NCBI GenBank assembly: GCA_963674735.2
Contig: CAXXQS010000001.1
Location: forward strand, 1,888,001 to 1,952,000
From: Myxococcota bacterium
Lineage (GTDB): Bacteria > Myxococcota_A > SURF-8
Length of the DNA: 64,000 nt
Direction of reading: 5' to 3'
Positions 2,391 through 48,036 of the stretch are shown in pieces. Made by a program: the position numbers and the translations under genes. How positions within the stretch are numbered: position 1 is the stretch's first letter; the number at the start of each line of letters is the position of its first letter. Below the pieces are notes generated by a model that saw nothing but the letters and a program-made list of their open reading frames with translations, made no database searches and was not told the DNA's origin.

Positions 2391-4070
2391 GTGATGATGA
2401 AGACGATGGCGTCAAGCTTCGGATGGGTGGGATGGATTGGGATCATGTTGTTCGCCGTCGGCTGCGGTTCGAACGACTCCATCAATCAACCGATGGGCGA
2501 TGCAGACCCCGACCTTGAGACGGTGGAAGATGGCGATCTTCCTCAATCCGACGGCGATAACGAATCCGAATCCGACAACGAAATCGATGCCATTGACGGT
2601 GACGCGGATAATGAACTTTCGGAAGAATCCGACAAAACCGAAACCTCGACAGACGGGGATGAAGACACGTCGACCGACGGCGACCAAGATCCGATCCAAA
2701 CGGACGGCGATGAGAGCGAAATGGAGCTAGAGCAGGAAGACGAGCAGGCAGAAGCCGAAATCGCCGATCAGGAGGACGACACCGAGACGGTTGAGGCAGA
2801 AACCGAAATAGAGGAAGAAGCAACCCTCGTTTGTGACGCGGAAACCGACCCACTCGACGTTTACCATCTGCTTGACGAACCGTATTTCTCCGACCTCACC
2901 TGGAGCTACGAAGGTGAAATTTCGAAACGCTGCGACTCCGACGGATTCATTTTCGCCGGGGCGAGAGGAATGCAAGTCTCGATCGAATTGAAACAGCGCA
3001 CTACCTACATGCCACTCAATGGACGCCTCATTCTAACAGACATCGCCGCAGTGAGCGGTCGCCGTGAGACGGAGATTTACTTCGACCAATCGCTCGAAGG
3101 GCCATCCGGAACCGTCCAGACCAGTTTCACCCTGCCCTATTCCGGCGAATATCTCGTCTTGGTGGCCGGACGCGGCAACGTGCAGACCGGAGCATACACG
3201 CTGGAAACCACCTGCACCGCCAATTGCGGACGCCGTTTCACCCGTCATCCGGTGGTTCTCATGCACGGCATGGCAGGTTTCGACAATGCACTTGGGTTTT
3301 ACGACTACTTTTACGGAGTCGAAGCGGACTTGTGGGATAGGGGCTACAACGTGGATTCCACCGAAGTGGCCATGTTCAACGATTCCGTCTACCGCGCAAA
3401 CGAAGTCGAGCGCCAGCTCATGGAAAAGCTGGAAGACACCGGAGCTCGCAAGCTCAATCTGGTCGTTCACTCGCAAGGCGGACTCGATGCACGCCATTTC
3501 ATCAGCGTGATGGGACATGCCGACGATGTCTCGGTGTTGGCCATGGTCGCCACTCCCAACCGCGGCGTTATTTTAGGCGACATGGTACTGGGAACCGTCA
3601 CCGGCGTCAGCCAGGACGTCATCGCTTCCATCATCGATTTTTTCGGCAACCTGATCGACGCCTCGGATAGCGACATCGTTGCGGCCTTGGGCCAGATTTC
3701 TACCGCGCAGATGGAAAATGAATTCAACCCCGCCCATCCTGACGCCCCAAATGTGGAGTATTGGTCCTGGGCGGGCGTCACCTGCGGATTCTTCGACTTC
3801 GACTGCCGCGACGACCACGGCGGCGAATATGTCGGTGCCGCCCTCTCCCTGACTTATGGCCTGATCAAAAACGGCCCAGAGGAAGAAGGCTACGGTCCCA
3901 ACGACGGCATGGTGCCGCTTTACAGCGCTCAATGGGGCACCTTTATGGGCATCGTCAATGCCGACCATGCCGACGAAATCGGGCAGCTCAAATCGCCTTT
4001 GATCAACGGCTTCGATCACAAACAGCTTTATCGCGACATCGTGTTTAAACTTTATGACGAAGGATTCTAA
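2391..4070 (+). CDS. Lipoprotein lipase (family I type alpha/beta hydrolase) with acidic DGD linker and PPC-like domain
   Basis: Lipobox FAVGC, D/E-rich linker with DGD motifs, PVVLMHGMAG oxyanion region, VHSQGG nucleophile, NDGMV Asp, ADHADEIG His. Confidence 0.85.
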   Translation: MMMKTMASSFGWVGWIGIMLFAVGCGSNDSINQPMGDADPDLETVEDGDLPQSDGDNESESDNEIDAIDGDADNELSEESDKTETSTDGDEDTSTDGDQDPIQTDGDESEMELEQEDEQAEAEIADQEDDTETVEAETEIEEEATLVCDAETDPLDVYHLLDEPYFSDLTWSYEGEISKRCDSDGFIFAGARGMQVSIELKQRTTYMPLNGRLILTDIAAVSGRRETEIYFDQSLEGPSGTVQTSFTLPYSGEYLVLVAGRGNVQTGAYTLETTCTANCGRRFTRHPVVLMHGMAGFDNALGFYDYFYGVEADLWDRGYNVDSTEVAMFNDSVYRANEVERQLMEKLEDTGARKLNLVVHSQGGLDARHFISVMGHADDVSVLAMVATPNRGVILGDMVLGTVTGVSQDVIASIIDFFGNLIDASDSDIVAALGQISTAQMENEFNPAHPDAPNVEYWSWAGVTCGFFDFDCRDDHGGEYVGAALSLTYGLIKNGPEEEGYGPNDGMVPLYSAQWGTFMGIVNADHADEIGQLKSPLINGFDHKQLYRDIVFKLYDEGF

Positions 4071-4116
4071 TCGCGCGCCTTGAATCGGACCGTCTAAACC
4101 GGGAGGAACGCCAATC

Positions 4117-5223
4117 ATGCAAGATGGAACCGTTTATTTTGTTCCTTATTCGATTCATAAAGACCCCCGCAATGTGCTGGTGCGCATGCGTGCCGCCTGC
4201 GAGGAAGTCGGAATTGCAACGTTCATCCGTCCGGACGATTTCTGCGCCATCAAAATGCATTTTGGCGAGTTCGGCATCACCAGCTATTTGCGTCCGGCCT
4301 ATCCACGCACCCTGGTCGCCATGCTCAAAGATCTGGGCGCACGTCCCTTCCTCACCGACACCAACACCCTTTACCGGGTGGCGCGACACAATGCGGTCGA
4401 CCATCTAACCACGGCGCATCAGAACGGTTTTTCCTACGGTTCGGTCGGCGCACCACTCATCATCGCCGACGGACTCCATGGTCACGCTCATCAGGAAGTC
4501 GACTACGACGGCAAACACCTGACGAAAATCTCCATCCCCGACGCCATTCACGATGCCGACTCGATGCTGGTGCTCAGCCATTTCACCGCCCATCTGGCCG
4601 CCGGTTTCGGCGCGGCGGTGAAAAACCTGTCCATGGGCTGCTCCAATCCCCAGGGCAAACGGCGCATGCACTGTCACTCCAAACCGACCGTGGACACCGA
4701 CACCTGCACAGCCTGCGGGATGTGTGCCCGCTGGTGCCCCACCGGCGCCATTACCGTGGACGACTACGCCTCCGTTAATGAAGACCTCTGCATGGCCTGC
4801 GGCGAATGCACCGTGGTGTGTCCCGTGCAGGCAGTGAAGATCCCCTGGGACGAAAACTCGTCGATTTTGCAGGAAAAGATGGCCGAACACGCTCATGCGG
4901 TCGTCCAGCAGAAGAAAGATCGGATTTTCTTCGTCAATTGCTTAGTCGATATCACCCCCCACTGCGACTGCATGGAACAAAGCGAACCGGTCTTCAAACC
5001 TGATGTTGGAATCCTGCTCGGAAGCGACCCGGTAGCCGTGGATCAGGCCTGCATCGACTTTGTTTCCGGCAAACTCAATTGGGATGGCCGCCGCTTGACC
5101 GAAGGCGAGCCCGGCGACCCGCTACGGGCGATTTACAAACACATCGACTGGCAGGTTCAACTGGCCTATGCCGAAACAATCGGTCTCGGGTCGCGTAGCT
5201 ACGAGCTTAAATTGATGCGCTGA
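4117..5223 (+). CDS. DUF362-type protein with 2x[4Fe-4S] ferredoxin domain
   Basis: KMHFGE, TDTNTLY, IIADGL, two CxxCxxCxxxCP motifs, CDC and DPVAVDQA. Confidence 0.88.
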   Translation: MQDGTVYFVPYSIHKDPRNVLVRMRAACEEVGIATFIRPDDFCAIKMHFGEFGITSYLRPAYPRTLVAMLKDLGARPFLTDTNTLYRVARHNAVDHLTTAHQNGFSYGSVGAPLIIADGLHGHAHQEVDYDGKHLTKISIPDAIHDADSMLVLSHFTAHLAAGFGAAVKNLSMGCSNPQGKRRMHCHSKPTVDTDTCTACGMCARWCPTGAITVDDYASVNEDLCMACGECTVVCPVQAVKIPWDENSSILQEKMAEHAHAVVQQKKDRIFFVNCLVDITPHCDCMEQSEPVFKPDVGILLGSDPVAVDQACIDFVSGKLNWDGRRLTEGEPGDPLRAIYKHIDWQVQLAYAETIGLGSRSYELKLMR

Positions 5224-5409
5224 GCACCTGGATAACATGCATCACGAGGTTGAAAAACCGGGTGCGAATGGTCTTCTTCAATGACCTTGATCGTGTCGAG
5301 CATCGCCAATCTCCCAGGTTCTGACTGACCTGTGGCCCATCACAAAAGACCGGAGAGCTATCGGGGCCTTTCTTATTTTCACTCAAACGAGAAAGCACCC
5401 CGCACTATT

Positions 5410-8400: not shown

Positions 8401-8589
8401 GATAAGCTTTTCCACATCTTCCGGCGACGCACCGGGATAAGGCACGATGATGATAACCGAATCGAAGTCCACGGCCGGTGCATTTTCCATCGGCATACGA
8501 TGCAGCGAAAACAGCCCCGCCACCAGAATGGCGATCATCAACATATTGACCAGAACGGTCTGACGCGAGAAAAAGCGCGGTATCGACAT
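5410..8589 (-). CDS. RND efflux permease (AcrB/AcrD/AcrF family)
   Basis: 1059 aa; YPGASPEDVE, LGMVVDDAIIIIEN, RMRPILLTT; 12-TM pattern. Confidence 0.95.
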   Translation of the reverse strand: MSIPRFFSRQTVLVNMLMIAILVAGLFSLHRMPMENAPAVDFDSVIIIVPYPGASPEDVEKLITLPIEDEITSLPDIDFIQSASSEGRCVFFIQYEVGLDNFDQAVMDLKSEVDKVKPELPQEAQDNMFTLKLASEDVWPIMAIALGGEYSNEGLKRISDSLKEELLDIPDVASIDISGILNREIWVEADRDRLETAGVSLTELTAAIQMANINLPSGRVEMGREEFLVRSMGEIDEPEQVGRVIVRIGRGGESARVADLARVTDTFERDEIIGRLNGKSSVYIRVFMKREGSVVDVAEQVREVVDQYREKVPGVDLSIRNDQSKDVVESISVLTTNALTGLVLVSILMTLIIGMRSAILAVIGIPFAFLSAFIFLDATGGTINTLSLFAFILVLGMVVDDAIIIIENVYRHMEEGKTPVQAAVAGTEQVMWPVIAAVLTTIAAFLPLLMMEGIVGKFLQVLPIVVTLALIGSLIQSLVVLPSHLNDFGRLPKKKGDRFGDRFYDKLLRLYRWQINKFLDHRYLVTFGTFVATVVFTALAANILRIEMFPEEATSTERLIMRLPTGTKLEETDRVMQDIESRVADMVGQELNSYQVLTGLVIENQQWTRTTEGGMVIFELADEDSRPSNSEVKNRIRKRIRNIPELKEAYFTRGEGGPPVGEPVEIRVRGDNLERLRELADMVMEEMKSVAGITDVKMDHRPGKREVQFIPDRVKMAAYGVSMTDLSLTMRSAVEGYEATKFRDEMGDEVKVRVLYREADRNDLDDLKRITISTSLGIHVPLAELGEFKVERGASQIHRRDGKRAITVTADVDKVTINSDEANRVMREKYDDFSTRFPGFNLDFGGEFEEQQKSFASLIQAFIVALVLIYLILGTQFQSFSQPLVVMFTVPFSILGVAIGLILMNLTFSLVAGISVVALSGVVVNDSLVLVDFINKGRASGLSRRRALVESGSRRMRPILLTTVTTIAGLTPMAFGLGGSTETWQPLAICFCWGLAFATFLTLFVIPCSYAILDDIVNIPRRWVGMETTGEALIRRAAELHDDTIHEDIEAAKEEENRP

Positions 8590-8598
8590 GCCGTCCCC

Positions 8599-9708: not shown

Positions 9709-9845
9709 TTTTCTACCCTCATGTTCCAATCAGTTTGGCTCGCATGATCTAAATTAATGCAAACCCTACCGTAAACAATTTGTTTTCGCAAGATCGGGAA
9801 GACACTGAACTCCACCATACTCATTTTCCCGATTGAGGAACACCC

Positions 9846-22912: not shown

Positions 22913-24514
22913 ATGCAGGCGATCATCCATGCATTCGGAACCGAGAATCAAAAACGACAGAAAGCACTGGCGATTCAGCTGTTTTCATCGGCCATGCTTA
23001 CAATCTTCGTGATATTTGGAGCCATAGCTTGCTCCAGTGACGATGACGACGGTCTTACCGACTCCGATGCACCCACCGACGGCGATCAATCGCCCATCGT
23101 GACAGACCATGAATTTCCAACAACTGACGGCGACACGACCCCGGATGGCGATAGCGAGGAGGGAGACTTGGACGTATCGGAAACGGAATCCGATGTGGAT
23201 CAGGATCTGGAATTTGCGGATGGCGATCTCGACGGCGAGCAGTCGGAAACGTTCGAGTACGAGAATGAATACAGCGATTTCGCCCCCGACGGCGATTTCG
23301 AGTGGGAGATTCCGGGAGGCGACGAAGACCCGACCGATATCGGCGAACAAGCCGCCGATGAGCTGGTACTGCCTTTCGATAACCGCGAAGTCATGGAGTT
23401 GACCCCTTTTTGCGCCTGGACTTACCAGGTCGAAAATGCAGCAGAATCACGTGCGGGGCAAGTCGCCACCGCCGTTTGCCTAAGCGACCCGCTCGGTAGC
23501 GATGAATTGTACCGCCACGACGGCGAGAACGCCTTGGCCAATCCGCCGCTACGCAGTTCCTTCGCACTTGCCAATGAAAACATGGGCTGGGCCGTTTATC
23601 GTCCTTTCAACGCCGATGGTCGAATCGACCATGACAGCCAAGTCGTATTTCGACGAGAGGAAAAGCTGAATACCGGTAAAATCGAGGTCGCTTACTTCAG
23701 CGCCGATATCCCGGCAATCGACAATTGCCGCTTTGTGCAGACCGCCGCTCTGCCCGTTCAGTCGGACGAAAAGGACGACCAGGTCGATTTTCTGGCGGCC
23801 TATGTATGGGAATATGACGACGAGAACGCCTACCTCGTCACCCGCCCCTACCGGGCCATAACCGGGCCCGAAAACGACGCCTCCATCACCGCTCTCGCGG
23901 ACCCGACCTATATCACCCTGAATTATGGGTTTCGACAAGCATCGCAAGTACGCATTGTCAATCACGCCAACCAGGTGTGGTTGAATGCCGGGGACTCCCT
24001 GCACGCACTCAGCTCCAGCGGCGAATATTTGAACAGTCACCGTCTCAACCTGATCCTCGACGACGATTCACGTTTCGATCTCATCGATTTCGCCATTTCT
24101 TCAGACGGCGTCTACATCAGCACGCTGACGCAAGTCGAGTTTACCAATGGCTCTCTCGAAACGGTATGGACTCTCCAACCTGCCGCCACCCCGCATCAGG
24201 TAACCAAGCTTTGGCGTTTCGGATATGAATACAATGCCTACCGCACCGCTTTCAGCGCCGACAGCCGCTATGCCATGGTGGCCAACGGCGACCCGAATAC
24301 GTACGACGACCTGTATGTTATCGACCTCGACCGCAGCCCGTTAAGCGTTCAGGCCACCAACCAGCCCGTTTGGGGACGTCCGCTTTCCTTTGACGACCCC
24401 TCACGACTCTTGCTGGCCTTTCCGATTTCAAGCGATCTGTTCCGCTCCGTGGATCTTCGAATCGATTCCGTTGCATTCAGTACGTTGCTCGACCGGTCCT
24501 TCAACCTGGAATAG
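22913..24514 (+). CDS. Hypothetical lipoprotein with DGD-repeat linker and beta-rich (propeller-like) C-terminus
   Basis: AIAC lipobox then TDGD/PDGD/ADGD acidic linker. Confidence 0.7.
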   Translation: MQAIIHAFGTENQKRQKALAIQLFSSAMLTIFVIFGAIACSSDDDDGLTDSDAPTDGDQSPIVTDHEFPTTDGDTTPDGDSEEGDLDVSETESDVDQDLEFADGDLDGEQSETFEYENEYSDFAPDGDFEWEIPGGDEDPTDIGEQAADELVLPFDNREVMELTPFCAWTYQVENAAESRAGQVATAVCLSDPLGSDELYRHDGENALANPPLRSSFALANENMGWAVYRPFNADGRIDHDSQVVFRREEKLNTGKIEVAYFSADIPAIDNCRFVQTAALPVQSDEKDDQVDFLAAYVWEYDDENAYLVTRPYRAITGPENDASITALADPTYITLNYGFRQASQVRIVNHANQVWLNAGDSLHALSSSGEYLNSHRLNLILDDDSRFDLIDFAISSDGVYISTLTQVEFTNGSLETVWTLQPAATPHQVTKLWRFGYEYNAYRTAFSADSRYAMVANGDPNTYDDLYVIDLDRSPLSVQATNQPVWGRPLSFDDPSRLLLAFPISSDLFRSVDLRIDSVAFSTLLDRSFNLE

Positions 24515-26468: not shown

Positions 26469-28025
26469 ATGGGAGTCGCGATGCTGATCCTACAACGACC
26501 GCTGATACTATTTCTGTTCTCGGTTCTGACGGCGATCTTGTCTGCCGCTTGCGGTGACGACTCGTCCATGCCTGACGGCGATCTCGACGGGGAAACGGCG
26601 AACGGCGAGTCCGACATACCCGATAGCGACGCAGACAGCCCAGGCGAGGAGAGCCCCGACGGTGACCTCGACGCCCCGGAAGGCGAAGAAGGTGAAGCAG
26701 ACACACTGCGCGTGTTCTACACCGAAGACGGCTTTATCCGCGACCGCGACGGACGGGCCATCATCCTGCGCGCCATCGCCTTTCCTTCCAAAGACCTGGA
26801 TTACTGGTCCGAACAGCCGCCCGACCAGGATGAGACCGATCTCGCCTTTATCGCCGAATCGGGCTTCAACGCCATTCGCCTTGGCATCAACTGGTCCCGT
26901 ATCGAACCCGAACGCGATCAGTACGACGAAAGCTATCTCGATCTGGTGGCGCGTCACGCACGTCTGGCGGCGGACCAGGGGCTTTACATCTTCATCGACA
27001 TGCATCAGGATCTTTACGGCGTGGGATTCGGTCTTGAAGGCGCGCCCTACTGGACCTGCGACGAGGCGTATTACGAATCGTTCGAGCCCATCGAGCCGTG
27101 GTTTTTCAACTATTTTTCGGAAGAAGTCAAAGCCTGCTTCGACGGGTTCTGGGAAAGCGAGGAATTGCAGCGCCACCAGCGAAACGCCGCCGCCGCACTG
27201 GCCTCGCGCCTGACCGACAACGCGTACATTCTGGGTTTCGATACTTTCAACGAACCGCTGCCGGGGAACATGAGTTGGGACGATTTCGGCCGCGACGCCC
27301 TGTGGCCTTTCCAGGAGCGTTTTTTCGAGGCTCTAAACGCCGCCCTGCCGGGACGCATGGTCTTTTTCGAACCGGCGGTCACCTTCTCCGCTACCCTCTC
27401 GACCACTATGACGGGACCGCAGGGAGGCTTTCCGGCTGTTTTTGCGCCGCATTATTACAACCAGTCGGTCGAAAACGATTGGCTGTGGGACGGCGATCCC
27501 ACTTCCGACCGGGCCGCCATCGACGCCATCGCCGCCGAGGCCGAGCGCATGAACGTTCCCTGGGTGCTGGGGGAAATGGGGGGAGATCGACGCACGACCA
27601 ACCTCGACGACTACCTGATGTCGCTGTATGCCATGATCGACGAAAAGATGGCCAACAGCGCCATCTGGATTTTCTCGAAGGGTACCAAGGGCTTCGGGCT
27701 TTACGATTCGGAAAAACAGGACTGGACCGAGCACGCCTCGGCTTATTTGCGTCCCGCCCCTTCGGCGGTGGCAGGCACCCCGCAGCATTTCGCCTGGAAT
27801 TACGACAGCTTGACCTTCACGCTGACCTGGGATGAAAAGCCCGGTATCGGCGACACGGAAATCCTGATTCCCAAATGGATGCGCGAGGCGGGGCTGACCC
27901 TCACCGTCGACGGCTCCCCCGCCATACCGGAATACTCCGAGCATCACCGCCTGATCGTTCCCGCAGGCGACGCAGCCGTCACCCGCTCGCTGGAAATCAT
28001 CGTGAAGGAGGAGGATGGGGGGTAG
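26469..28025 (+). CDS. GH5 glycoside hydrolase lipoprotein (endoglycoceramidase-like) with DGD linker
   Basis: LSAAC lipobox; PDGD repeats; GFNAIRL..WSRIEP, DMHQDLY, FNEP acid/base, APHYY, LGEMG nucleophile. Confidence 0.88.
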   Translation: MGVAMLILQRPLILFLFSVLTAILSAACGDDSSMPDGDLDGETANGESDIPDSDADSPGEESPDGDLDAPEGEEGEADTLRVFYTEDGFIRDRDGRAIILRAIAFPSKDLDYWSEQPPDQDETDLAFIAESGFNAIRLGINWSRIEPERDQYDESYLDLVARHARLAADQGLYIFIDMHQDLYGVGFGLEGAPYWTCDEAYYESFEPIEPWFFNYFSEEVKACFDGFWESEELQRHQRNAAAALASRLTDNAYILGFDTFNEPLPGNMSWDDFGRDALWPFQERFFEALNAALPGRMVFFEPAVTFSATLSTTMTGPQGGFPAVFAPHYYNQSVENDWLWDGDPTSDRAAIDAIAAEAERMNVPWVLGEMGGDRRTTNLDDYLMSLYAMIDEKMANSAIWIFSKGTKGFGLYDSEKQDWTEHASAYLRPAPSAVAGTPQHFAWNYDSLTFTLTWDEKPGIGDTEILIPKWMREAGLTLTVDGSPAIPEYSEHHRLIVPAGDAAVTRSLEIIVKEEDGG

Positions 28026-31917: not shown

Positions 31918-34371
31918 TTATGGGTCGAGGCGCCAGCGTTGGGCGGCCTCGGGGGTAAAGGTCGGCAGGTCGGGACGACGGTAGGCGCGATACGGGGCCT
32001 GCGTTTTGAATGGCACCGGGCTGAGGGAATCCTGTCCGACCGTATCCCAATCCGCGCAATCAAACTCCGAGCCGCCGTGCTGGTAACAATAGCAGGCTCC
32101 CTCATTGGCCAACACCTGACCGATCAAGGCCGAGTCGGTGGTCATGGGAAGATTGGCGGCGATTTCGAACGGCTCTCCCTGCACAAACTCGCTGTTGTTC
32201 TCCACACACACCCACAAAGACGGGGTGTAATCGCCCTGGGTGAGGATGGCGGTCGGGCACATGCGCACATAACGGTTGCTGCCGACGGTTTTGTCGTTGA
32301 CCTCCGATAAGTAGGCGAAAAAGCCGCCCGTTTCCGGATCGTAATCCAAACGGTTCTCTCCGGCCGTTTTCAAGCTTTCCAGCCGCTCGATGCCGATATT
32401 GGTTTCCATGTACTTCATGCTAATCTGATTCGGCGCCACTTGATTCAAGCTGCCATAGCTGGTCACCGTCACGATCGGCGTCCCATCCTGAGCGGATCGC
32501 GTAACGGCGGCGATGGCATAGCTGCCGTAATCGTGTGTCTCGCCATCTAGCGTAACCTGAACCTCACCGGAGCCGGGTTGACCGTCCGCCAACACCCCGT
32601 CAAGAATGAAAGTCAGCGAATTGGCGGCCTGCGGAGTCAGAAAATCATCCGGCAGGCTGCAGCTCAGTTCCAGAACCGACGTTTCCCAGGCATCTTCGAT
32701 ACCCAAGTAATAGTTGTTGTAGGCCGGATTTCCCGCGAAATCGATCTCGCGCAAGTCGTTTAAACAACTCGTGTCGGGCGCGGCTTGCGGATTGTCCATG
32801 AACGACAGCATGATCTGCAGACCGCAGTCGCGACTGTTTTCGCTCTGTACGGGCGATTGCGTCAGCACGCCGTGGTTGGCGAAGGGAATCTCGACGAAGG
32901 TCTGATGCTCACCGGTGAGAGCATCCCGCGCCGCAACGGCCACCTCGATGGGGGTTTGCAGATCGAGGGTTCCGTTCATCGATAAAATCGGCACACTGGG
33001 GTCGGCCCAAAGCCCCCAATAGTCGTCGGGTGTGTAAGTCGGCCAGAAGTCGGCCAGACTCATCAGCCGTTCACCCAGGTAGTTGTTGGTCAACATATCG
33101 TTGCGCATGTCTTCCAACTCCGCCACCGTCAGCGGTATTTCGCTCAGCATCTCGGATAGGATAATGTGATTACCCAAAGCATATCCGTATTGACGATCCG
33201 CGAACGACACCTCACCTCCGAAAATCTTGAAAATGGCGTTGACAATTGCCGCCACATCATCCTCGTTGCAACGCGCCAACCGATAGTAAAGTGCCGGAAC
33301 GAGCACCCGCGAGTTCCAGTCGCGTCCCAAGGTGAAAGACGCCATTTGAATGTATTGCATGGTGATGCCGTAGGAATCGGTCAGCACCGAACAATGCCCA
33401 TCGCGAAAGTCCGCCAGAGCTTGCTCGGCTGTCGCGGCCGGATCGGAACCGAGTTTTTCGGAACAGAAGTCGTCTTCGGCGCACATATCGAAAAGTTTGC
33501 GCGTGGTCGCATCCGCGTAAACGTCGTAGCGATCGAGATAGGTGGGAATCGAAGGCGGCACCGAGTCCAGCACGACCCCTTCACTTTGCTCGGGAAAGAG
33601 TTGGGCATAGCGATGCCCCCAGTAGGAGCCATAGCTGCAGCCGTAAACGATCACATCCTTGGTTTCTTCCCGCGCCAGTTCAACCAGGTATCCGACATCA
33701 ATTGCGGCCTGGGTGGTGGTAAAGGCATGCAACGGATACCCCCAATCCGATTGCAGCCAATCCACGCACTGCGTCCACTCGGAATTGGAAAGGCCGAAAC
33801 CGTTCTCCGAATCGTCGGCCTCGTATTGCGGACAGCCGATTCGCGTCGAAAAACCCACTCCCCGGTGATCGAGAAGGTAGATATCCGCCTTGGGATCGGC
33901 CTGATTCAGCAGATCCGCCAACCAGGCTAACCCCGTACTCCCCGGTCCGCCCGGACCGCCATGCAGCAACCAGATCTGCCGCGTCGCGTCGGCGGACTGC
34001 CTGAGACGTTTCACGCGAACGAGCAAGGTCTGGCCTTCGACGTCATACCAGTCCACCGGCATCGGGACATCGGCACATTCGGCATCGCGCTGCTGAGCGG
34101 AGGTGCTGCCTTCGTAGAGGGGACAATCCGCCCATTCGATCTCCGCCTCAAGCAAGGCCTGCGGCAAAACGAAGGGCCCCGGAACATCGCCGTCGGGGTC
34201 GTCGCCGTCGGGGTCGTCACCATCGGGCTCATCGCCGTCGGGACTATCGCCGTCAGGGCTATCGCCATCCGGATTTCCATTGCCTTCAGAATCCCCCCCG
34301 CAAGCAATGAGCACCAAGCTCATGACAATCAACGAAGTCCATCTTAAAATCCAGAAGCATCCCTTGCGCAT
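31918..34371 (-). CDS. Alpha/beta hydrolase lipoprotein (S33/TAP-like peptidase) with PDGD linker and extra C-terminal domain
   Basis: Start MRKGCF after AGGAG; LIAC lipobox; LLHGGPGG, DHRGVG, GCSYG, DLQTP, ANHGV. Confidence 0.85.
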   Translation of the reverse strand: MRKGCFWILRWTSLIVMSLVLIACGGDSEGNGNPDGDSPDGDSPDGDEPDGDDPDGDDPDGDVPGPFVLPQALLEAEIEWADCPLYEGSTSAQQRDAECADVPMPVDWYDVEGQTLLVRVKRLRQSADATRQIWLLHGGPGGPGSTGLAWLADLLNQADPKADIYLLDHRGVGFSTRIGCPQYEADDSENGFGLSNSEWTQCVDWLQSDWGYPLHAFTTTQAAIDVGYLVELAREETKDVIVYGCSYGSYWGHRYAQLFPEQSEGVVLDSVPPSIPTYLDRYDVYADATTRKLFDMCAEDDFCSEKLGSDPAATAEQALADFRDGHCSVLTDSYGITMQYIQMASFTLGRDWNSRVLVPALYYRLARCNEDDVAAIVNAIFKIFGGEVSFADRQYGYALGNHIILSEMLSEIPLTVAELEDMRNDMLTNNYLGERLMSLADFWPTYTPDDYWGLWADPSVPILSMNGTLDLQTPIEVAVAARDALTGEHQTFVEIPFANHGVLTQSPVQSENSRDCGLQIMLSFMDNPQAAPDTSCLNDLREIDFAGNPAYNNYYLGIEDAWETSVLELSCSLPDDFLTPQAANSLTFILDGVLADGQPGSGEVQVTLDGETHDYGSYAIAAVTRSAQDGTPIVTVTSYGSLNQVAPNQISMKYMETNIGIERLESLKTAGENRLDYDPETGGFFAYLSEVNDKTVGSNRYVRMCPTAILTQGDYTPSLWVCVENNSEFVQGEPFEIAANLPMTTDSALIGQVLANEGACYCYQHGGSEFDCADWDTVGQDSLSPVPFKTQAPYRAYRRPDLPTFTPEAAQRWRLDP
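34186..34272 (-). repeat. Six 15-bp coding tandem repeats (PDGD-x)
   Basis: PDGDSPDGDSPDGDEPDGDDPDGDDPDGD. Confidence 0.9.
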
Positions 34372-37998: not shown

Positions 37999-39963
37999 AT
38001 GTTTCTGCGACCTGCTCTGCAGCGTTTTCTGGTGGTTGGTTTATTGATCTGCTTAGCCCTTTCCGTCGCCTGCAACAGTTCCGAAGATTCCAACGGCGAA
38101 GAGCCCGTTTTCGATGGCGACGTCGGCGGCTCCGACCCCACCGATGGCGATACTCCCGTCGATGGCGACGACACGCCGCTTCCGGCATGCAAACCGATCT
38201 GCGAGCGCTATTGCGACCTGCTTAAACAATGCGACACAACCGGTGCCGTCGCTGGCGAAGTTTATGCCCAATGCAAGGAAAGCTGTGCGGCGATTCGACT
38301 GAGCGGCCAATACATACCCAACATTTCCTGTGGAGAAGAAGCCGATTGCGGCACCTTCGTCCGTTGCGACTCCAGTAATGGCGACCCCGATTTTCGCTGC
38401 GACACCGGCGATGCGCCCGATATCGACGGCGACAGCCCGCAACCCGACGGCGACCAGCCCCAAACCGACGGCGACCAGGAAGCGCAACCCGATGGCGACG
38501 AAGAAATTCCCGAAGGCGGATGCACCGCGGAAATCTTCTGTCCCGCCCAAACCAATTGCGATCCCGATTCCCACCTCTGCCTGCCGGACTGCGATCCGTA
38601 CGCCCCGAATTGCCACGGCGACCAGATCTGCAAAATCATCACCGAACCGGCCCCCTACGGATTGGGCAAAGGCGTCTGTATCGCCGACCCCGGAGAAGGC
38701 GGACTGGAAGGCGAGATCTGCAATCCCGGCCGCCCGTGTCGCCCCGATTTCGTCTGCGGGGACGCCAGTTTCTGTGAAAAACCCTGTAATCCCAATCTTC
38801 CGGACGACGCCTGCACCGACGGTCTGCGCTGCCGCTATAGCGACTCGGTCGGAATCGGCACTTGCGCGTTCTGTCACCTCGGCTATCCCTGCACCCAGAA
38901 CAAAAAGTGCCTCAACGGCTACTGCCGCTACGGTCAGGAATGTGAAAGCTCCGACACCTGCCCCAACGGCGAGAGCTGTTTCAACGGTTACTGCGACGAC
39001 AACTGCACGGTCACCGGCTGCAATCCCGGCACCTGCGATGCCGACAGCGGTTTCTGCTATGCCGATATCTGCGACAACGGATGCGACAGCGGCGAATGCT
39101 GCAACCGCACAAGTTGCGGTCCCTGCTGCTCTCCCGCCTGTCCGGCAGGCCAAGTCTGCGACTACGATCCCAGCTGCGGCAACGAGCTTTCGTGCTGCGT
39201 CGACCGCACCGACTGCCGCGACATGCCCGACAACTTCTGCAACGGCATTCCCTGCGACCGCGAAACCGGCGGTTGCCGGGGAGCCTGTCCGGCCAGTTGT
39301 CCATGGAACTACGTCTGCGGACAATGGAGCGGCTTCGAATGCGTCCCGACCTCTCCCCAGAGCTGCGATGAGCCCATCGGCGGCGATTGCCCGACCTGCA
39401 CGGCCTGCGATTTCTGGGGCTCGAAACAATGTGTTGCCACCGGAACCTGCGGCATCAGCTGCATCCCGCGTGGAATCGCCTGCACCCCCACTCCCGGAAC
39501 CAGCTTCCTTTCCTGCTGCGACGATCAGGTCTGTTGCACCGCCTCCAGCGGCAGCAAGGTCTGCTGTCCGCCCGGCTGGTGCCAGGTGGGAGTCGGATGC
39601 GTCGACCCGGATGCCGACGGCGATGTGACGGAAGATTACACCTGCCCCGAGTGCGACAGCATGGCGGGCAACTGGTGCAAAGATCCATCCGCCACCTGTC
39701 CTTCGCCATGGGAAGAGCTGATCGTGCGCCGTATCAACTCCTACCCGTGTTTCTTCGTGCTCTACCATACCGCTTACGAGTTGGACAACCTGCTGACGGA
39801 CACGGAGTATTGCGACAGTCAGGCCTTGCACTTCTACGACAGTCCGGGGTATGACGAATGCGCGTTGTATTGGGATCGTCCCAATGATCGATACACAGTC
39901 AAATGCCGACAAGGAACGACCTCGTGCAGTGCCGCGTTCAGCCAAAGCTACTGCAGCAAGTGA
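37999..39963 (+). CDS. Cys-rich lipoprotein A with DGD linkers
   Basis: SVAC lipobox; DGD blocks between densely Cys-rich modules; AGGAG RBS. Confidence 0.85.
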   Translation: MFLRPALQRFLVVGLLICLALSVACNSSEDSNGEEPVFDGDVGGSDPTDGDTPVDGDDTPLPACKPICERYCDLLKQCDTTGAVAGEVYAQCKESCAAIRLSGQYIPNISCGEEADCGTFVRCDSSNGDPDFRCDTGDAPDIDGDSPQPDGDQPQTDGDQEAQPDGDEEIPEGGCTAEIFCPAQTNCDPDSHLCLPDCDPYAPNCHGDQICKIITEPAPYGLGKGVCIADPGEGGLEGEICNPGRPCRPDFVCGDASFCEKPCNPNLPDDACTDGLRCRYSDSVGIGTCAFCHLGYPCTQNKKCLNGYCRYGQECESSDTCPNGESCFNGYCDDNCTVTGCNPGTCDADSGFCYADICDNGCDSGECCNRTSCGPCCSPACPAGQVCDYDPSCGNELSCCVDRTDCRDMPDNFCNGIPCDRETGGCRGACPASCPWNYVCGQWSGFECVPTSPQSCDEPIGGDCPTCTACDFWGSKQCVATGTCGISCIPRGIACTPTPGTSFLSCCDDQVCCTASSGSKVCCPPGWCQVGVGCVDPDADGDVTEDYTCPECDSMAGNWCKDPSATCPSPWEELIVRRINSYPCFFVLYHTAYELDNLLTDTEYCDSQALHFYDSPGYDECALYWDRPNDRYTVKCRQGTTSCSAAFSQSYCSK

Positions 39964-39989
39964 TAGAACCGAATTCAAGGCTAAAAACG

Positions 39990-41585
39990 ATGAAAAACAA
40001 AGCAATCCATCTTCCGCTCGTCTTCCTGCTGATGCTCCTGCTCGTCCTCGGCATATCCTGCAAATCGGAGAGCGACGACTCCGACCCGACTTACCCGGCC
40101 GGGGATTCCGACTCAACAACGACCGATGGCGATCAGAATCCCAGCACGGGTGAAAATACGACCGGCACGGCCTGTGTCGCCAACTGTGAAGGAACCGATC
40201 AATATTGCCTGTCGCTCTCGAACGCGGTGGATTGCGATGGCTATTGCATGGCGGCCAGCGGCCAACAGGACGGCTTTTGCCTCGGACTGTGTGCGACCGG
40301 AACAGGCTGTCCGGCGCAAACCACCTGCTTGACCTGCGCCGACAAGGCCGAGTGGTCGGGGCATTGCGTCTACAACGACTTGCTGCCCTGGTTCAACAAC
40401 ATCTGCAACTCCGGCAGCGACGGCGACAACGATGCCCCCGATGGCGACGATCCCCTCGACGGCGACTCGGACGATCCCGTTGTTTACGGCTGCCAGACGG
40501 AAAATGATTGTGCGGATGGCGAGCACTGCGATCCGGCGACAAATAAATGCGCGACGGCCTGCGATCCCTACACCCGCGAATGCATGGGAGCCCAGGTTTG
40601 TCACGTGCTCCAGGAAGGCGAATTGGCCGGAGAAGGCGTGGCCATTTGCGTCGATCAAATCAGCTACGGTCGGGATGAGGGTCAGTTGTGCGTCGGCGGC
40701 CAACTCTGCAAACACCACTTGATCTGCTTCCTGAACGACCACTGCTCGACCGTCTGCGATCCGGATGGCGAGAACACCTGCCCCGACAACAAACTCTGCC
40801 ACCTGGATGACACCAGCGGCGTCGGCGTGTGCGAGCGCTGCTCGGACTTCGTCCCCTGCCCGGATGGCCAGGTCTGCGACGACGGCGTATGCGAAACCAA
40901 AATATCCTGCGATAGCTACGAAGACTGCACGCGCCCCATGACCTGCCTGTCGAATTACTGCCAGGACGGCTGTTCCATAACCGGTTGCATCAGCGGCTTC
41001 TGTAATGGCCTGACCGGCTATTGCGAAGAAACCTGCCTCCCCGCCTGCCCGGATGGCCAATGCTGCAACCAGGGCGAGTGCGGACCCTGCTGCGACCCAC
41101 CTTGCTATAATCGTGATATCTGCATCGAGGACGTCTCTTGCGCTCCCGACGCAACCTGTTGCTTTACACCGGAGGACTGCCGCGAGCAAACCGACCCGGA
41201 CGCTTGGTGCGAGGGCGATCTGATTTGCGACAACACCACCGGCGATTGCCGTCCGGAATGCCCGCCCGCCGGTTGCGGCTGGGGATATGTTTGCGGCATG
41301 GAAACCGGGTATGAGTGCGAACCGATCCCGCCCGAACCCTGCGACCCGCTAACGGCCTGCTCGGATTCGGCTTGTATGGTTTGCGCGTGGCTACAGGGTC
41401 AATGCGTTCCAAACGCCAGCGGAAATTGTCCGTTCAATTGCGTTCCGACCGGCGTGGGCTGCGGAACGGCTATCGGGCAAATGGCCTGCTGTATGGGCGA
41501 TACCTGCTGCACGGACGAATCGGGAATGTCGACCTGCTGCCCCTCCGGCAGTTGCGTCAGCGGCCAAGGCTGCCAGGCGCGTTAG
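39990..41585 (+). CDS. Cys-rich lipoprotein B, paralog of A
   Basis: GISC lipobox; DGD linkers; Cys spacing colinear with the upstream protein (CDP..C..CDPY..C...Q.C). Confidence 0.85.
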   Translation: MKNKAIHLPLVFLLMLLLVLGISCKSESDDSDPTYPAGDSDSTTTDGDQNPSTGENTTGTACVANCEGTDQYCLSLSNAVDCDGYCMAASGQQDGFCLGLCATGTGCPAQTTCLTCADKAEWSGHCVYNDLLPWFNNICNSGSDGDNDAPDGDDPLDGDSDDPVVYGCQTENDCADGEHCDPATNKCATACDPYTRECMGAQVCHVLQEGELAGEGVAICVDQISYGRDEGQLCVGGQLCKHHLICFLNDHCSTVCDPDGENTCPDNKLCHLDDTSGVGVCERCSDFVPCPDGQVCDDGVCETKISCDSYEDCTRPMTCLSNYCQDGCSITGCISGFCNGLTGYCEETCLPACPDGQCCNQGECGPCCDPPCYNRDICIEDVSCAPDATCCFTPEDCREQTDPDAWCEGDLICDNTTGDCRPECPPAGCGWGYVCGMETGYECEPIPPEPCDPLTACSDSACMVCAWLQGQCVPNASGNCPFNCVPTGVGCGTAIGQMACCMGDTCCTDESGMSTCCPSGSCVSGQGCQAR

Positions 41586-42898: not shown

Positions 42899-43223
42899 GC
42901 GCCAGCACCTCCGCCATCGCTGCGAAAACCCGCTGAGAACCCTTTACCTACCGATTGTGGCCGGGAGCATAGGCGCTGGAACAGGTGACTGTCAAATCGA
43001 ATCCGATCCCGCGCGGATCGGTCCAAGGGGCCAGGCGTCGAATGTGGGGAGAATCCTTGACAAGTCCTCAGAAATTCGGCTATTTTTCACTTGTTCCTAA
43101 GGTGATCGCCACGGACACGACAACCTGGACTATTCAGAACCAAACCCTTTTGTTTCTTTGAGTCGTCTTCTCGAAGATCGGCGGGGGGCTGAGGTCCAGT
43201 TAATAAAAGGGAAATACCCTGCA

Positions 43224-45092
43224 ATGTCAGAACGTTCTATCCACACATCGTCCAAATGGCATCTGCCCGTCCTCCTTTCATTGTGCCTTTCCCTCCTCCT
43301 ATCGGCCTGCTTTTACGGATCGCCGGAAGAGGAAAGCTCCGATCCGCAATCAACCATTGTGGTGAAATCGGACGATTCCGGCATCCTGACATCGCCCGAT
43401 GGCCGGGTGTACGTACAATTCGAAGCCGGAACCGTTTTACGGCCGACAACTTTTTCCGTAACCGAACTCGACCGGTCCCAATACCCCGATCAACCGTGGC
43501 TGCAGAGTAAGGTTTACATGATCGAGCCGTCTTTGCCGCTTGAAAAGGCCGTCACCGTTACCGTCGATATCAAAGGACTGGAAGGCCAAGGGGTCGACAT
43601 CGCCACGCTCTACAACCTCGACGCGCTGGCCTTGCGCAAAATCCGGCCGCTTATGCGGCCCGAGTATGTCTCGGTTCTCGAAACCAACATGGACCACTCC
43701 GATGGCACCAAACACCGGGTGCTTCTGCACCAGACCGATCAACTCGGCGCTTTCGGCGTCTATGTTCACGATTGTTTCCTGATGTGCCGCAAAATCATCG
43801 AATGCCCAAGCTACACCCTCGAACCCGATACGCCCATCCGCGAACAGATCTTGAGCTGCATGTCGGAGAATGGCTGCCCGGGCGAACTGGAATCCATCAA
43901 CAGCGACGACATGGCCGCAACCTTCGACTGCGCCTGGAACCGCTCGTGTGCGGATGCCTATGGATGCTGCCAGGAAGAAAACCACTGCAGCAGCGCTCCG
44001 GATGGAGATGATCCCGATGGCGACGATCCGACCGACGGTGACACGGACGGCGACACCGACGGCGACACCGACGGCGACACCGATGGCGACACCGATGGCG
44101 ACACGGACGGCGATACCGATGGTGACACGGACGGGGACACCGATGGCGATGACGACGATACCATCAGTTTCGATCCCCTGACCTGCAACGGCAATCCCGA
44201 ATGCCCCGACGGCTGGGACTGCATCTATGAGGAATCGATCGATATCACCACCGGTTATTGCATGCGCCTCGCCTCGCAGGCCATCGCCACCTACTCCTTT
44301 AGCGGAACCAGTTGGGATTACGCCGAAATGGTTCCCGATCTCACCTGCGTCGGACAGGATCCCGTCGCGGGCGGGCAGGGACCGGCGTTCTTCACGCTGC
44401 GCGTCCAGGTCGCTCCCTGGTGGCAACTGGAAGACAAATCCAGCATCCAAGTGAAAATGTTCCGAGCCACCAATCTCGACGTTCCCTTCATCAGCGGCGT
44501 TACCAACGAAAACGGAACGGTCGATTTCACTCAGATTTACCCGGACGAATGGTTCATGCTGCGCTCCGAACGGCTCCCGCCCGACGACCGCATCGTGCCC
44601 ACTTACGATTGGGGTCTCTTCATCCCCAAATCGGTCGCCAAAACCTACACCGATCAATCCGAGCCGGTTCCGATTACCATTCATCCATTGGACGAAACGC
44701 GGTATAACGCCTTTGCCCAGTCACTCGGTTTTTCGGAAGGCATGCCCCTTGGCTACGGCATGGTGATCGGCCAGGTTTTGGACTGCCATGCAAATCCGTA
44801 TGCCCTGGCCAACGTCGGCATCGGCTTCAAGGAAGCCTCTCCCGCTGTCATGGGCTATTTCAACAACCAGGTCGACTATCCGTCACCGATGATGTTGCAA
44901 ACCGCAACCAATAAAAACGGTTTATTTGTCGGGTTATATATGCCGCCACAGGACAATCTGACAGCCTTCGCCTTCGGACAGCTATCCGAAGGTGGCGGGT
45001 TGTATTCCATCCTGACCGGTCACACCGAACCGTTCCAATTCACCTTGAAACGGGATTCGGTGAGCATAATCCGATTCAACCAGACTTACTGA
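43224..45092 (+). CDS. Lipoprotein with ZU5-like domain, Cys-rich module, (TDGD)10 linker and beta-sandwich C-terminus
   Basis: LSAC lipobox; GILTSPDG..TFSVTE..VYMIEP; TDGD repeats. Confidence 0.75.
   Translation: MSERSIHTSSKWHLPVLLSLCLSLLLSACFYGSPEEESSDPQSTIVVKSDDSGILTSPDGRVYVQFEAGTVLRPTTFSVTELDRSQYPDQPWLQSKVYMIEPSLPLEKAVTVTVDIKGLEGQGVDIATLYNLDALALRKIRPLMRPEYVSVLETNMDHSDGTKHRVLLHQTDQLGAFGVYVHDCFLMCRKIIECPSYTLEPDTPIREQILSCMSENGCPGELESINSDDMAATFDCAWNRSCADAYGCCQEENHCSSAPDGDDPDGDDPTDGDTDGDTDGDTDGDTDGDTDGDTDGDTDGDTDGDTDGDDDDTISFDPLTCNGNPECPDGWDCIYEESIDITTGYCMRLASQAIATYSFSGTSWDYAEMVPDLTCVGQDPVAGGQGPAFFTLRVQVAPWWQLEDKSSIQVKMFRATNLDVPFISGVTNENGTVDFTQIYPDEWFMLRSERLPPDDRIVPTYDWGLFIPKSVAKTYTDQSEPVPITIHPLDETRYNAFAQSLGFSEGMPLGYGMVIGQVLDCHANPYALANVGIGFKEASPAVMGYFNNQVDYPSPMMLQTATNKNGLFVGLYMPPQDNLTAFAFGQLSEGGGLYSILTGHTEPFQFTLKRDSVSIIRFNQTY
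44031..44150 (+). repeat. Ten 12-bp tandem repeats encoding TDGD
   Basis: AC(C/G)GA(C/T)GG(C/T/G)GA(C/T) x10, variation only at third codon positions. Confidence 0.95.
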
Positions 45093-45159
45093 GATTCCGT
45101 TCCGGCCATGTAACGGCCGGATCGGCGAGCGCGCATTGTGTGTTTGAAAGGAGTTTTCC

Positions 45160-48036
45160 ATGCGATTTCAATGGACTGGGGTTTTGTTGGCGTGTGCCGT
45201 TCTGGCAGCCTTCTGTTTTGCCTGTGCCGGAGGGAGCGATTCCGGAATCCTGAATATGGGCGATGACGATGCCGAAGGAGATGGCGACGCAGACGACGAA
45301 ATCGCCAATGAAGACGGTGATGACTTGCCGGACGGTGACACGGATGGCGATGGCGAAGAAACCGAAGCCCTGCCCACCGAAACCAAATGCGATGTGGACC
45401 GGCATAACAACGACCGCATCGTGACGTCCAAAGACGGCGGCACCACCCAGGTTTGCATTCCCGGCGATCCACTGGACGGCGTGAAAGTCAAAATCCTCCC
45501 CGATGCTTTGAAAGACGACATCAATGTGACGCTCTCCATCACTGACAATTTCGACGTGGACGACTGGGTCGCGGTCGGACCCGCCATTTATTTCGAAGCC
45601 ACTCCCCTTGAAAATGATGGCGAAGTCCTGCTGGAAGAGAATGCCGAATTCGCGATTCCCTTCAAAGTGTCGCAACTTCCGGAACTCGCCGAAAACTTCC
45701 ACATCAACGTAGCCGTGGTGCTGGATCCGAAAACCGGTGTTGAGAACGGCGACGATAACGCACCGCTTTTCATCCCGAAATCGCCCTCTCTCATTCGCAT
45801 CGACCGCGAACGTGAGTTGCTGATTTTCCCCTACTGGTATTTCGGCACCATCCAGGCGATGGTCCCGGCGGAAATTTTGCCCCCCACCACACGTCATTTC
45901 ACCTACAAAGCCGTCAGCGGCGTTTCCATGGGCGGCATCGGATCGTCCATCACGGGCTTCCGCTACCCCGATCGTTTCGACATTCTCGGCCCGCTGGGCG
46001 GATCGATGAACATGGGCTATCTGCTCAACATGATGCATGATCTCCACCTCGGCGGATTCTGCGATTACGACACCATCACCGGAGCGGCCGATATCGACGC
46101 GTTCGTCACGGATACCACGCAGCAATGCGGTTGGTGCGGCCCCCAGCACGACCCGGAAGACTGGTCCAACCCGGGAACCTACTGCTATATGGTCGAACCG
46201 CGCAGTCAATACCCGGACGAGCACGCCCAGGGTTACAACCACTGGTATTACGACGACGACGGCGGCAACTTCAACCGGTCGAGCTATATGGACATTTTCC
46301 GCGACCTGGCCTATGCCTTCGGAAATCCGACGAATTACAACCCGGCCTCTCCCTATCTGCCTGTCGGTCTGGGCGGCGAGCGCGTTGTCGATCAGGATCG
46401 CCTGCAAACCTACCTCGACACCATCTACGACAAAGACCAACAAGCTCATGGATGTGCTGAATTGGCCACCTGGATGGCATCGGACCCGCTCACGGAACTC
46501 TTCGATCACGAGTACAACCCCGAGGGTCTGTATCCGGCCATTTATTACTGCGACGGAACCAGCCAGCGCAATGGCCATTGGGACCCGGATGACAGCGGTG
46601 CCCGCTCCCGCCGGATGGATATCGGCATCGCCATCGATTTCAACGAAAACGGTGTGCGCGACTACGGCGAGCCGGTGATTCGCCAGTTCTGGGAACCCTA
46701 CGAAGATTGCGGCCTCGACGGACTGTGCGACGAAAACGAAACCGGCTACAATGCCGACAGCAATCCCGATCCCGCCGGTGACAACTACCACCCCTTCGAC
46801 AATCCCACCGGCACGGAAGAAAACGGTTTCTGGGACGGTCCGGCAGGCAGCGACCCCGGCGAAACCTACCAGGACTTGGGCTTGGACGGCGTCGCGTGCC
46901 CGGTCGTCGGGGAGAGCACACCGCAAGCCATTAAAGCCACCTGCCCCTACGATTACGGTGAAGGCAACGGACAATTCGATCTCAATCCCAATATCGAAAC
47001 GTACTTCGCTCACGATCCCCTGCTGAATGCGAAAGGCTTGACGGACGAACAGGTCAAGCGCCTCAATATCTGGTTCGACGGCGGCATCCGGGATATCTTC
47101 AATTTCCTGGTCATGGCCGATGGCGTGGCGATGCAGTTCAACACGCAATCCGAGCCGCTCAACCTGCCGGTTAAAAAATACCAGCGCTACACCTCGCTGA
47201 TGGATCCCGTTCAGGATAACATCAACAGCTTCAACTTCTTGCGAGTCAATTACGCCGGACTCGGCCAGAACGTTTTGATGCGCTACGGCGACTACGATGC
47301 CACCGACGCGATGATCGCCGGAGGCGATGGGCGTCACGTGGGCTACATTCCGCAGCTCTTCTTCCGTATCCAGACCTTCTTCTCCTTCGCCAATCACCAC
47401 TTCGCGAATGGCGATTTCGAACCCGTCGAATCGAGTTCGTTGACCGACCTTCTCTTCAGTTCGATGTATGATTCGGATGTGCTGGGCCGGAAAGCGCGCT
47501 ATTCCGTCGCCCTGCCCCCCGGTTACTATTCCAACAATCAGGACGGAGCCGACGGCGCACCGGACACCTGCGTCAACCGCTATCCGGTCATCTATCTCGG
47601 ACACGGCTACGGAATGGATCCGCAAGGCATGGCGGGCGCGTTGACATTGTTCATGAGCTATATGTCGGACGGAATTTTCCAGAAAATGATCACCGTCTTC
47701 CCCGACGGCGAATGCTACGACCAGGGTACCTGCCGAGGCGACTGCAACAGCCAATGCAACAATGTTTCCGCCGCCGACAAACCGGCTTGCCTGGACGCCT
47801 GTTACACGGAACGCGGATGCGACGATGTGATTACGGAATGTGTCAGAGGCAATTTCTACGTCAACCACGTCGTATCGGCGGCGAACCCCGTCGACGGCAT
47901 GTCGACCGGCGGCTTGCACGAAGTCCAGACCGAAGACAGCCTGCTTGAACTGATGGACTACATCGACAGTCATTATTGCACCAAAGAACCGGAAGACGTG
48001 CAGGTCGACGGCGCGACCTTGGATGGTTTGTACTAA
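45160..48036 (+). CDS. Lipoprotein esterase (PF00756-like alpha/beta hydrolase), apparently circularly permuted
   Basis: CFAC lipobox, DGD linker, ZU5-like domain, then GVSMGG..YPDRF, IWFDGGIRD, GDGRH, followed by LPPGY, YPVIYLGHG, VFPDG, ELMDYIDSHY. Confidence 0.75.
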   Translation: MRFQWTGVLLACAVLAAFCFACAGGSDSGILNMGDDDAEGDGDADDEIANEDGDDLPDGDTDGDGEETEALPTETKCDVDRHNNDRIVTSKDGGTTQVCIPGDPLDGVKVKILPDALKDDINVTLSITDNFDVDDWVAVGPAIYFEATPLENDGEVLLEENAEFAIPFKVSQLPELAENFHINVAVVLDPKTGVENGDDNAPLFIPKSPSLIRIDRERELLIFPYWYFGTIQAMVPAEILPPTTRHFTYKAVSGVSMGGIGSSITGFRYPDRFDILGPLGGSMNMGYLLNMMHDLHLGGFCDYDTITGAADIDAFVTDTTQQCGWCGPQHDPEDWSNPGTYCYMVEPRSQYPDEHAQGYNHWYYDDDGGNFNRSSYMDIFRDLAYAFGNPTNYNPASPYLPVGLGGERVVDQDRLQTYLDTIYDKDQQAHGCAELATWMASDPLTELFDHEYNPEGLYPAIYYCDGTSQRNGHWDPDDSGARSRRMDIGIAIDFNENGVRDYGEPVIRQFWEPYEDCGLDGLCDENETGYNADSNPDPAGDNYHPFDNPTGTEENGFWDGPAGSDPGETYQDLGLDGVACPVVGESTPQAIKATCPYDYGEGNGQFDLNPNIETYFAHDPLLNAKGLTDEQVKRLNIWFDGGIRDIFNFLVMADGVAMQFNTQSEPLNLPVKKYQRYTSLMDPVQDNINSFNFLRVNYAGLGQNVLMRYGDYDATDAMIAGGDGRHVGYIPQLFFRIQTFFSFANHHFANGDFEPVESSSLTDLLFSSMYDSDVLGRKARYSVALPPGYYSNNQDGADGAPDTCVNRYPVIYLGHGYGMDPQGMAGALTLFMSYMSDGIFQKMITVFPDGECYDQGTCRGDCNSQCNNVSAADKPACLDACYTERGCDDVITECVRGNFYVNHVVSAANPVDGMSTGGLHEVQTEDSLLELMDYIDSHYCTKEPEDVQVDGATLDGLY

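Follow-up and report, generated by a model that had tools for sequence, protein, structure and literature searches.

The stretch of DNA considered here (the window; 64,000 nucleotides (nt), G000:C1:1888001-1952000) belongs to a 5.26-Mb genome in three contigs (55–58% G+C) whose source organism is known solely as a metagenome-type assembly and whose phylum is given as Myxococcota by orthologue records. Eight dispersed genes of the window encode predicted lipoproteins with Asp-Gly-Asp (DGD) units. An earlier reading of the sequence, the original prediction, had described these genes as sharing one design, in which a lipobox Cys is combined with linkers of DGD units placed right after the Cys or between domains. 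This design was recovered: all eight genes exist with 3–12 DGD tripeptides each (Table 1), and each of the eight translations, upon inspection, opens with a hydrophobic N-terminus that closes with a lipobox-like Cys. The units start a few residues past the Cys in g2391, g22913, g26469, g31918, g37999, and g45160, and arrays lie between domains in g37999, g39990, and g43224. The predicted gene positions could all be found, with the corrections that the gene at 31918 runs on the minus strand, this number marking its low end, and that 39990 and 43224 are internal Met codons of open reading frames (ORFs) opening at 39903 and 43158, respectively. None of the remaining ORFs in the window carries an array, and the four further lipobox ORFs among them contain 0–1 DGD each.

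The cargo assignments held for g2391, which matches Burkholderia/Pseudomonas family I lipases (E 2e-24), and for g26469, which is matched by Pfam GH5 (5e-27) and by an endoglycoceramidase-like PDB entry (9e-30), while its NCBIfam score falls far under the cut-off. The Cys-rich nature of g37999 and g39990 was likewise borne out, and neither protein matched a Pfam or NCBIfam family. In g31918, an alpha/beta hydrolase, the TAP-like match at the C-terminal end is weak, as is the esterase match of g45160, the only one obtained for that protein. Short CxxxDC...C modules like those of g37999 and g39990 are found again elsewhere in the genome, where many proteins have them between their DGD arrays.

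Table 1 Predicted DGD-bearing lipoproteins of the window (positions are nt of the window)
Gene	Product	Position	Strand	Lipobox Cys (residue)	DGD tripeptides	Location of DGD units
g2391	Lipoprotein with family I lipase domain	2391..4070	+	25	6	six at nt 2529-2711
g22913	Lipoprotein, unknown beta-rich cargo	22913..24514	+	40	5	five at nt 23078-23296
g26469	Lipoprotein, GH5 endoglycoceramidase-like domain	26469..28025	+	28	3	two at nt 26574-26666; one within catalytic domain
g31918	Lipoprotein, alpha/beta hydrolase domain, weak TAP-like C-terminal match	31918..34371	-		6	six xPDGD at nt 34186-34269, straight after lipobox
g37999	Cys-rich lipoprotein, 86 Cys	37999..39963	+		8	N-terminal array nt 38113-38169; interdomain array nt 38425-38499
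g39990	Cys-rich lipoprotein, 77 Cys, design like g37999	39990..41585	+		4	interdomain array nt 40419-40466
g43224	Two-domain lipoprotein	43224..45092	+		12	twelve including (TDGD)10 between domains, nt 44001-44150
g45160	958-aa lipoprotein, weak esterase-like region	45160..48036	+		4	four at nt 45280-45351, past lipobox

Across the genome, a codon-usage-scored caller yielded 3679 ORFs of at least 100 amino acids (aa), covering 4.65 of the 5.26 Mb, and their products were classified heuristically, by simple rules that recognize a lipobox, a signal-like N-terminus, or membrane helices, rather than by SignalP or LipoP. With an array defined as three or more DGD units, we detected 280 arrays across 243 proteins. 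Most of them (205) lie no more than 100 aa past a lipobox Cys and another 24 no more than 100 aa ahead of the Cys of a C-terminal MYXO-CTERM tag; 44 are found elsewhere within lipobox or MYXO-CTERM proteins and only 7 in other proteins. At the level of proteins, arrays are present in 187 of 540 with a strict lipobox, 27 of 104 with a loose lipobox, and 22 of 45 with MYXO-CTERM-like ends, compared with 2 of 460 signal-like proteins lacking an anchor, 2 of 1958 proteins without a signal, and none of 194 that have transmembrane helices only. These counts indicate that the arrays track lipid anchors and not secretion in general. The strict rule catches six of the eight window genes, the lipoboxes of g45160 and g22913 being recognized by eye; it is therefore conservative, and many seeming exceptions are lipoproteins that it overlooked, these two among them.

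The density of DGD follows the same order: the 540 lipobox proteins contain 6.54 per 1000 aa, signal-like proteins contain 1.85, and the 1995 proteins without a signal contain 0.27. At least two DGD inside a 60-aa stretch, the scan proposed along with the original prediction, occur in 255 of the 540 lipobox proteins and 14 of the 1995 no-signal proteins of this heuristic classification (odds ratio 127, p 1e-175). Cytoplasmic proteins thus lack such arrays, as had been claimed, and the arrays are practically confined to predicted lipid-anchored proteins rather than being equally common elsewhere. No tripeptide is more enriched than DGD in the 80 aa past the lipobox Cys (106-fold over cytoplasmic proteins), and the median distance from this Cys to the first DGD is 12 aa. 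Neighboring units are most commonly spaced by 5 residues (642 of 1406 pairs; spacing 4 accounts for 150), and the residue ahead of DGD is most often Pro, then Thr, then Ser. By the same heuristic rules, lipobox proteins number between 540 (strict) and 685 (loose) of the 3679 ORFs, and a lipoproteome at 15–19% of ORFs would be unusually large.

The arrays divide the lipoproteins into two classes. Those with an N-terminal array (n = 237) have a median net charge of -20 in the first 60 aa, a median length of 559 aa, and a median of 10 Cys, as opposed to -2, 326 aa, and 2 Cys in those without any DGD (n = 218). Residues +2 to +6 follow the pattern G/S, G/S/D, D/S, D/S, D in the array class and are patternless in the class without DGD. 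Arrays comprise between 1 and 24 units, net charge is coupled to DGD content, and the segment past the Cys is rich in Asp (15.8%), Gly (9.9%), and Pro (6.6%). Housekeeping lipoproteins belong to the array-free class: BamD, four OmpA/Pal-type, a CpoB-like, and seven membrane-fusion lipoproteins, all with a lipobox, have no N-terminal array. LptE could not be used as a further control, since PF04390 is unmatched in the genome. Cargo was tallied by Pfam in lipoproteins sampled from the 40 stretches of 20 kb that are richest in them, using 111 of 112 array-free and 71 of 89 array-bearing lipoproteins (the longest of the latter removed). The 111 array-free proteins represent 100 families, led by TPR, FGE-sulfatase, PPIase/SurA, glutaredoxin, and LPP20, and the 71 array-bearing proteins merely 37, led by Ig-like, GH5, PKD, GH88, GDPD, FG-GAP, S10, and PETase-like domains. 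In support of the original prediction, the arrays are borne by proteins with hydrolase, Ig-like, PKD, or Cys-rich cargo and not by periplasmic housekeeping lipoproteins.

Arrays are also not tied to the lipoprotein N-terminus. Many proteins with an ordinary signal peptide bear C-terminal DGD arrays followed by a Gly run, a Cys, a hydrophobic helix, and an Arg cluster. The MYXO-CTERM profile TIGR03901 gave 16 matches at E <= 0.01 among 79 candidates, 14 of them above the cut-off and none corresponding to the eight window genes; our own pattern recovered MYXO-CTERM-like ends in 45–47 proteins, the count depending on the analysis. In 32 of 47 such ends at least two DGD are found in the 100 aa upstream of the tag Cys, with a median of 18 aa between the last DGD and this Cys and a net charge of -15 in 60 aa. 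Positions -1 to -5 relative to the tag Cys read G, G, G/D, G/D, D, and Gly is dominant at -1 to -4. The MYXO-CTERM layout is therefore the mirror image of the lipoprotein layout. The genome further encodes two GspD-type secretins. A search of it for GspN (PF01203) yielded nothing above the cut-off and a single 21-bit match in a 1389-aa open frame (G000:C2:485685-486128).

We counted matches to a DNA pattern for DGD-xx-DGD genome by genome across 201 Myxococcota genomes. The genome of the window has 766 matches and five members of its family have 32–1289; a genome of a sister family (G008) has 168, and 0–4 were counted in the order's two remaining families. A reversed-pattern control gave 0–1 matches in the window's order and at most 4 per strand across the whole sample. 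The 192 sampled genomes of other orders mostly contain 0–21 matches, the exceptions being one genome with 54 (G036) and one family with 89–103 (f41). The latter was considered as a second DGD-rich lineage and rejected: G121, the genome from which the family was judged, is without a triple unit, and nearly all of its listed hits are a fixed DGDC(D/N)DGD, of which about 100 copies sit inside a longer structured repeat rich in Cys and Asp. This repeat presumably resembles those annotated as 'putative metal-binding motif'. Among the 201 genomes, high numbers of true arrays are thus limited to the window's family and one sister family, and the lineage specificity that the original prediction had assumed is borne out by this mapping.

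Comparison of orthologues indicates what is conserved. In all seven compared orthologues of g45160, the lipobox, the G/S start, and the acidic character of the linker are preserved, but the sequence of the linker varies: it holds 3, 6, or 1 DGD, or (EG)n, in three metagenome-assembled genomes, (EDGD)n in G008, a single DGD in each of G006 and G009, and no DGD in G007. Orthologues of g43224 retain the array at the identical interdomain site, with different units. Of 20 sites sampled in G008, 14 lie past a lipobox and one belongs to a MYXO-CTERM-like protein; the other five stayed unassigned. DGD units and poly-Asp runs (6–9 Asp) occur in the same linkers at G008 loci L052-L071, so that the acidic segment by the anchor takes another form in this sister family. 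In G001 and G004, two members of the window's family, DGD arrays stand ahead of the MYXO-CTERM tags (7 of 7 and 6 of 6 parsed, respectively), and the tags of G006 have Glu/Asp-rich stretches devoid of DGD in this place (3 of the 22 loci in these three genomes were unparsed). In four other families, poly-Asp, (GDG)n, or Thr-Glu/Thr-Asp repeats stand ahead of the tags, and the median net charge is -12 over 60 aa; this survey took 19 of 25 loci, with six omitted for short frames or contig ends and one of the 19 unparsed. The exact DGD sequence is thus replaceable and its position conserved, and DGD is best read as the local form of a broader habit of acidic anchor flanks in the phylum. Because linker sequence differs between orthologues and sister families, a sequence-specific signal or modification site, part of the original proposal, is disfavored.

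At the DNA level, the window arrays are imperfect repeats with periods of 12, 15, 18, or 21 and 73–85% matches (Tandem Repeats Finder). The Gly codon GGC accounts for 72% of Gly inside DGD and 42% elsewhere, which points to the spread of a GAY-GGC-GAY DNA unit; the Asp codons GAC and GAT are mixed evenly, as elsewhere.

We consider it reasonably probable (roughly 60%) that DGD arrays form a lineage-specific, anchor-proximal, polyanionic, and probably disordered stalk on lipid-anchored envelope proteins, a reading that fits the anchor-adjoining position of the arrays. In the lipoproteins, the lipidated Cys would be followed by 2–3 Gly/Ser, a few Asp/Ser, (x)xDGD units, and the folded cargo; in the MYXO-CTERM proteins, cargo would be followed by DGD units, Asp, the Gly run, Cys, membrane helix, and Arg cluster. 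Such a stalk could keep large disulfide-rich hydrolases and binding modules off the anionic membrane surface. Selection would then act on composition (acidic, Gly/Pro-rich) and not on exact sequence, and the DGD form may have expanded in the window's family, probably by duplication of GAY-GGC-GAY units. We infer both the disorder and the spacer function of the arrays. In staphylococcal LPXTG proteins of the Clf/Sdr type, a Ser-Asp repeat stalk between the anchor and the functional domain is thought to project the domain off the surface. The likeness lies in a long acidic repetitive region between anchor and domain; the staphylococcal proteins differ in their Gram-positive wall anchoring, dipeptide unit, and glycosylation, and there is no homology. 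The carriers would be cell-surface proteins, as MYXO-CTERM proteins are in Myxococcus xanthus, where these reach the surface via a type II secretion system (T2SS) (PMC11980579). Exposure at the surface is suggested by this analogy together with the extracellular-type cargo and the two GspD-type secretins. If the arrays are stalks, they would reveal the means by which lipases, glycosidases, and peptidases are presented at the surface in this lineage.

Several points weigh against this interpretation. Localization, lipidation, and disorder of the carriers are all predicted from sequence, the protein classes are our own heuristics, and surface exposure is extrapolated from M. xanthus. The 44 of 280 arrays that are interdomain mean that part of the signal is general linker use. 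Through two internal DGD, the array-bearing set took in one membrane-fusion lipoprotein that would be expected on the periplasmic side, and the GGC bias also fits a DNA-slippage expansion that is possibly largely neutral. An AlphaFold2 model of g43224 from a 3-sequence alignment shows no secondary structure in the interdomain array (pLDDT, the predicted local distance difference test, of 26–34), which says little because the whole model is poor (mean 49.4).

Among the alternatives to a stalk, the one that survives best, although we regard it as rather unlikely, is that the acidic segment adjoining the Cys is a sorting determinant that directs proteins away from the default Lol route to a surface exporter such as the T2SS, with the DGD array as part or extension of the signal. 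The G/S followed by D/S-D-D near the Cys is specific to array-bearing lipoproteins and is retained in sister families without DGD arrays. It resembles the SDDDD and K-(D/E)2 motifs of Bacteroidota (PMC5080379), the GGG or ND(N/D) at P2'-P4' of T2SS-dependent lipoproteins (PMC12802150), and the acidic flank of the MYXO-CTERM Cys, whose carriers are T2SS-dependent in M. xanthus; two GspD-type secretins are present as well. Yet 1–24 units of replaceable sequence exceed the needs of a short signal, 16% of arrays are distant from any anchor, and the GspN match stays under the cut-off. Co-occurring machinery was not found either, though no systematic search for it was made. A Myxococcota-wide extension of this idea, in which an acidic flank of the lipobox or MYXO-CTERM Cys bypasses Lol and hands the protein to the T2SS for surface display, is similarly tentative and in our view improbable. 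Were it true, the DGD carriers (7% of ORFs) would constitute an unusually large surface lipoproteome that is readable from sequence.

That the arrays bind Ca2+ or Mg2+, stiffening on metal or bridging to lipopolysaccharide, a reading that takes in the Ca2+-stiffened stalk of the original prediction, seems doubtful at best. Asp-Gly-Asp units are typical metal ligand sequences, the carriers are extracytoplasmic, and inspection shows DxDxDG in arrays whose units are spaced by 4 residues, for example (TDGD)10 (nt 44031-44149), a likeness to thrombospondin type 3 repeats, which also consist of Asp- and Gly-rich units. Identity with these repeats was rejected: the Pfam profile TSP_3 (PF02412) matches none of the eight window proteins at E <= 0.01 and, of 41 candidate places across the genome, matches 2, both outside the window and one of them above the cut-off, so that the profile misses the arrays. 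Furthermore, only a spacing of 4 suits DxDxDG and the dominant 5-residue unit is off-motif, orthologues swap DGD for Glu-rich, poly-Asp, or (EG)n stretches, and ordered loops are not predicted, albeit in the poor g43224 model. That the arrays are essentially neutral low-complexity expansions, with GAY-GGC-GAY slippage tolerated in existing flexible linkers and the DGD content functionless, would agree with tandem DNA repeats of strong GGC bias, with unit counts and sequences that vary freely among orthologues, and with the different forms in other lineages, but is very unlikely as it explains neither the near-absence of arrays in 460 anchor-less signal-bearing and 1958 cytoplasmic proteins nor the link of net charge with DGD content, and mixed GAC/GAT codons and a repeat identity of only 77–85% suggest that the peptide was kept through synonymous change.

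The stalk that we favor has relatives among described lipoprotein features. The original prediction knew of no named system, which is right for DGD itself but passes over close ideas: disordered lipoprotein linkers, the lipoprotein export signal (LES) of Bacteroidota, and the motif of T2SS-dependent lipoproteins. A disordered segment is reported to follow the lipidated Cys in about half of the outer-membrane lipoproteins of E. coli and to matter for their sorting (bioRxiv 10.1101/2021.01.05.425367). The flexible, non-globular segment directly past the Cys is the common element; here it is instead a repetitive polyanion that can reach 24 units and has a median net charge of -20 over 60 aa, restricted to one lipoprotein class and mirrored at MYXO-CTERM tags. 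In Bacteroidota, acidic residues past the +1 Cys mark surface lipoproteins, and the SDDDD of B. fragilis resembles, without being identical to, the G/S-D/S-D-D found here (PMC5080379). The LES is a short, position-dependent motif of 4–5 residues that was shown experimentally in another phylum, whereas DGD arrays are long and variable and also precede C-terminal anchors. Surface lipoproteins of A. baumannii that depend on T2SS/GspN share a Gly/Ser- or Asn/Asp-rich P2'-P8' region past the lipobox Cys (PMC12802150). They have no repeat array as far as the available text goes; in the present genome GspN remains below the cut-off, and a link to the T2SS would rest on analogy. The MYXO-CTERM/myxosortase system is represented by the 45–47 tagged ends of the genome, and TraA is drawn with a disordered region beside its tag (PMC11980579); the eight window genes differ in being lipobox proteins. 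The available portions of PMC11980579 and bioRxiv 10.1101/2023.06.07.544157 describe no acidic repeat beside the tag. A literature search found no description of DGD arrays beside a lipobox or MYXO-CTERM Cys, supplementary motif tables (e.g., those of PMC11980579 and PMC12802150) lying outside its scope.

The surface delivery of lipoproteins outside Bacteroidota, spirochaetes, and Neisseria is poorly understood. In the genome studied here, a single sequence feature splits the lipoproteins into two classes and recurs, mirrored, at an unrelated lipid anchor. Should the stalk also act as a routing signal, it would provide a simple predictor of Myxococcota surface lipoproteins and a portable display tag.

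Three public sequencing runs from a single study, none of them RNA, were inspected at (TDGD)10 of g43224. Short-read contigs end on both sides of this array, and no indels were reported there, at a depth that is inflated by other array loci. It is likely that DGD arrays fragment short-read assemblies of this lineage. The remaining genes of the window are ordinary housekeeping genes, encoding an RND pump and its membrane-fusion protein, MutY, fumarase, FtsH, TilS, GlmM, and others. Between the GH5 gene and g31918, the segment 28068-31742 has a G+C content of 0.42 compared with about 0.55 around it. It encodes a TPR protein that opens with a lipobox-like sequence, along with a family 2 glycosyltransferase; coding scores are low for the two of them, and the segment is possibly an island gained by horizontal transfer.

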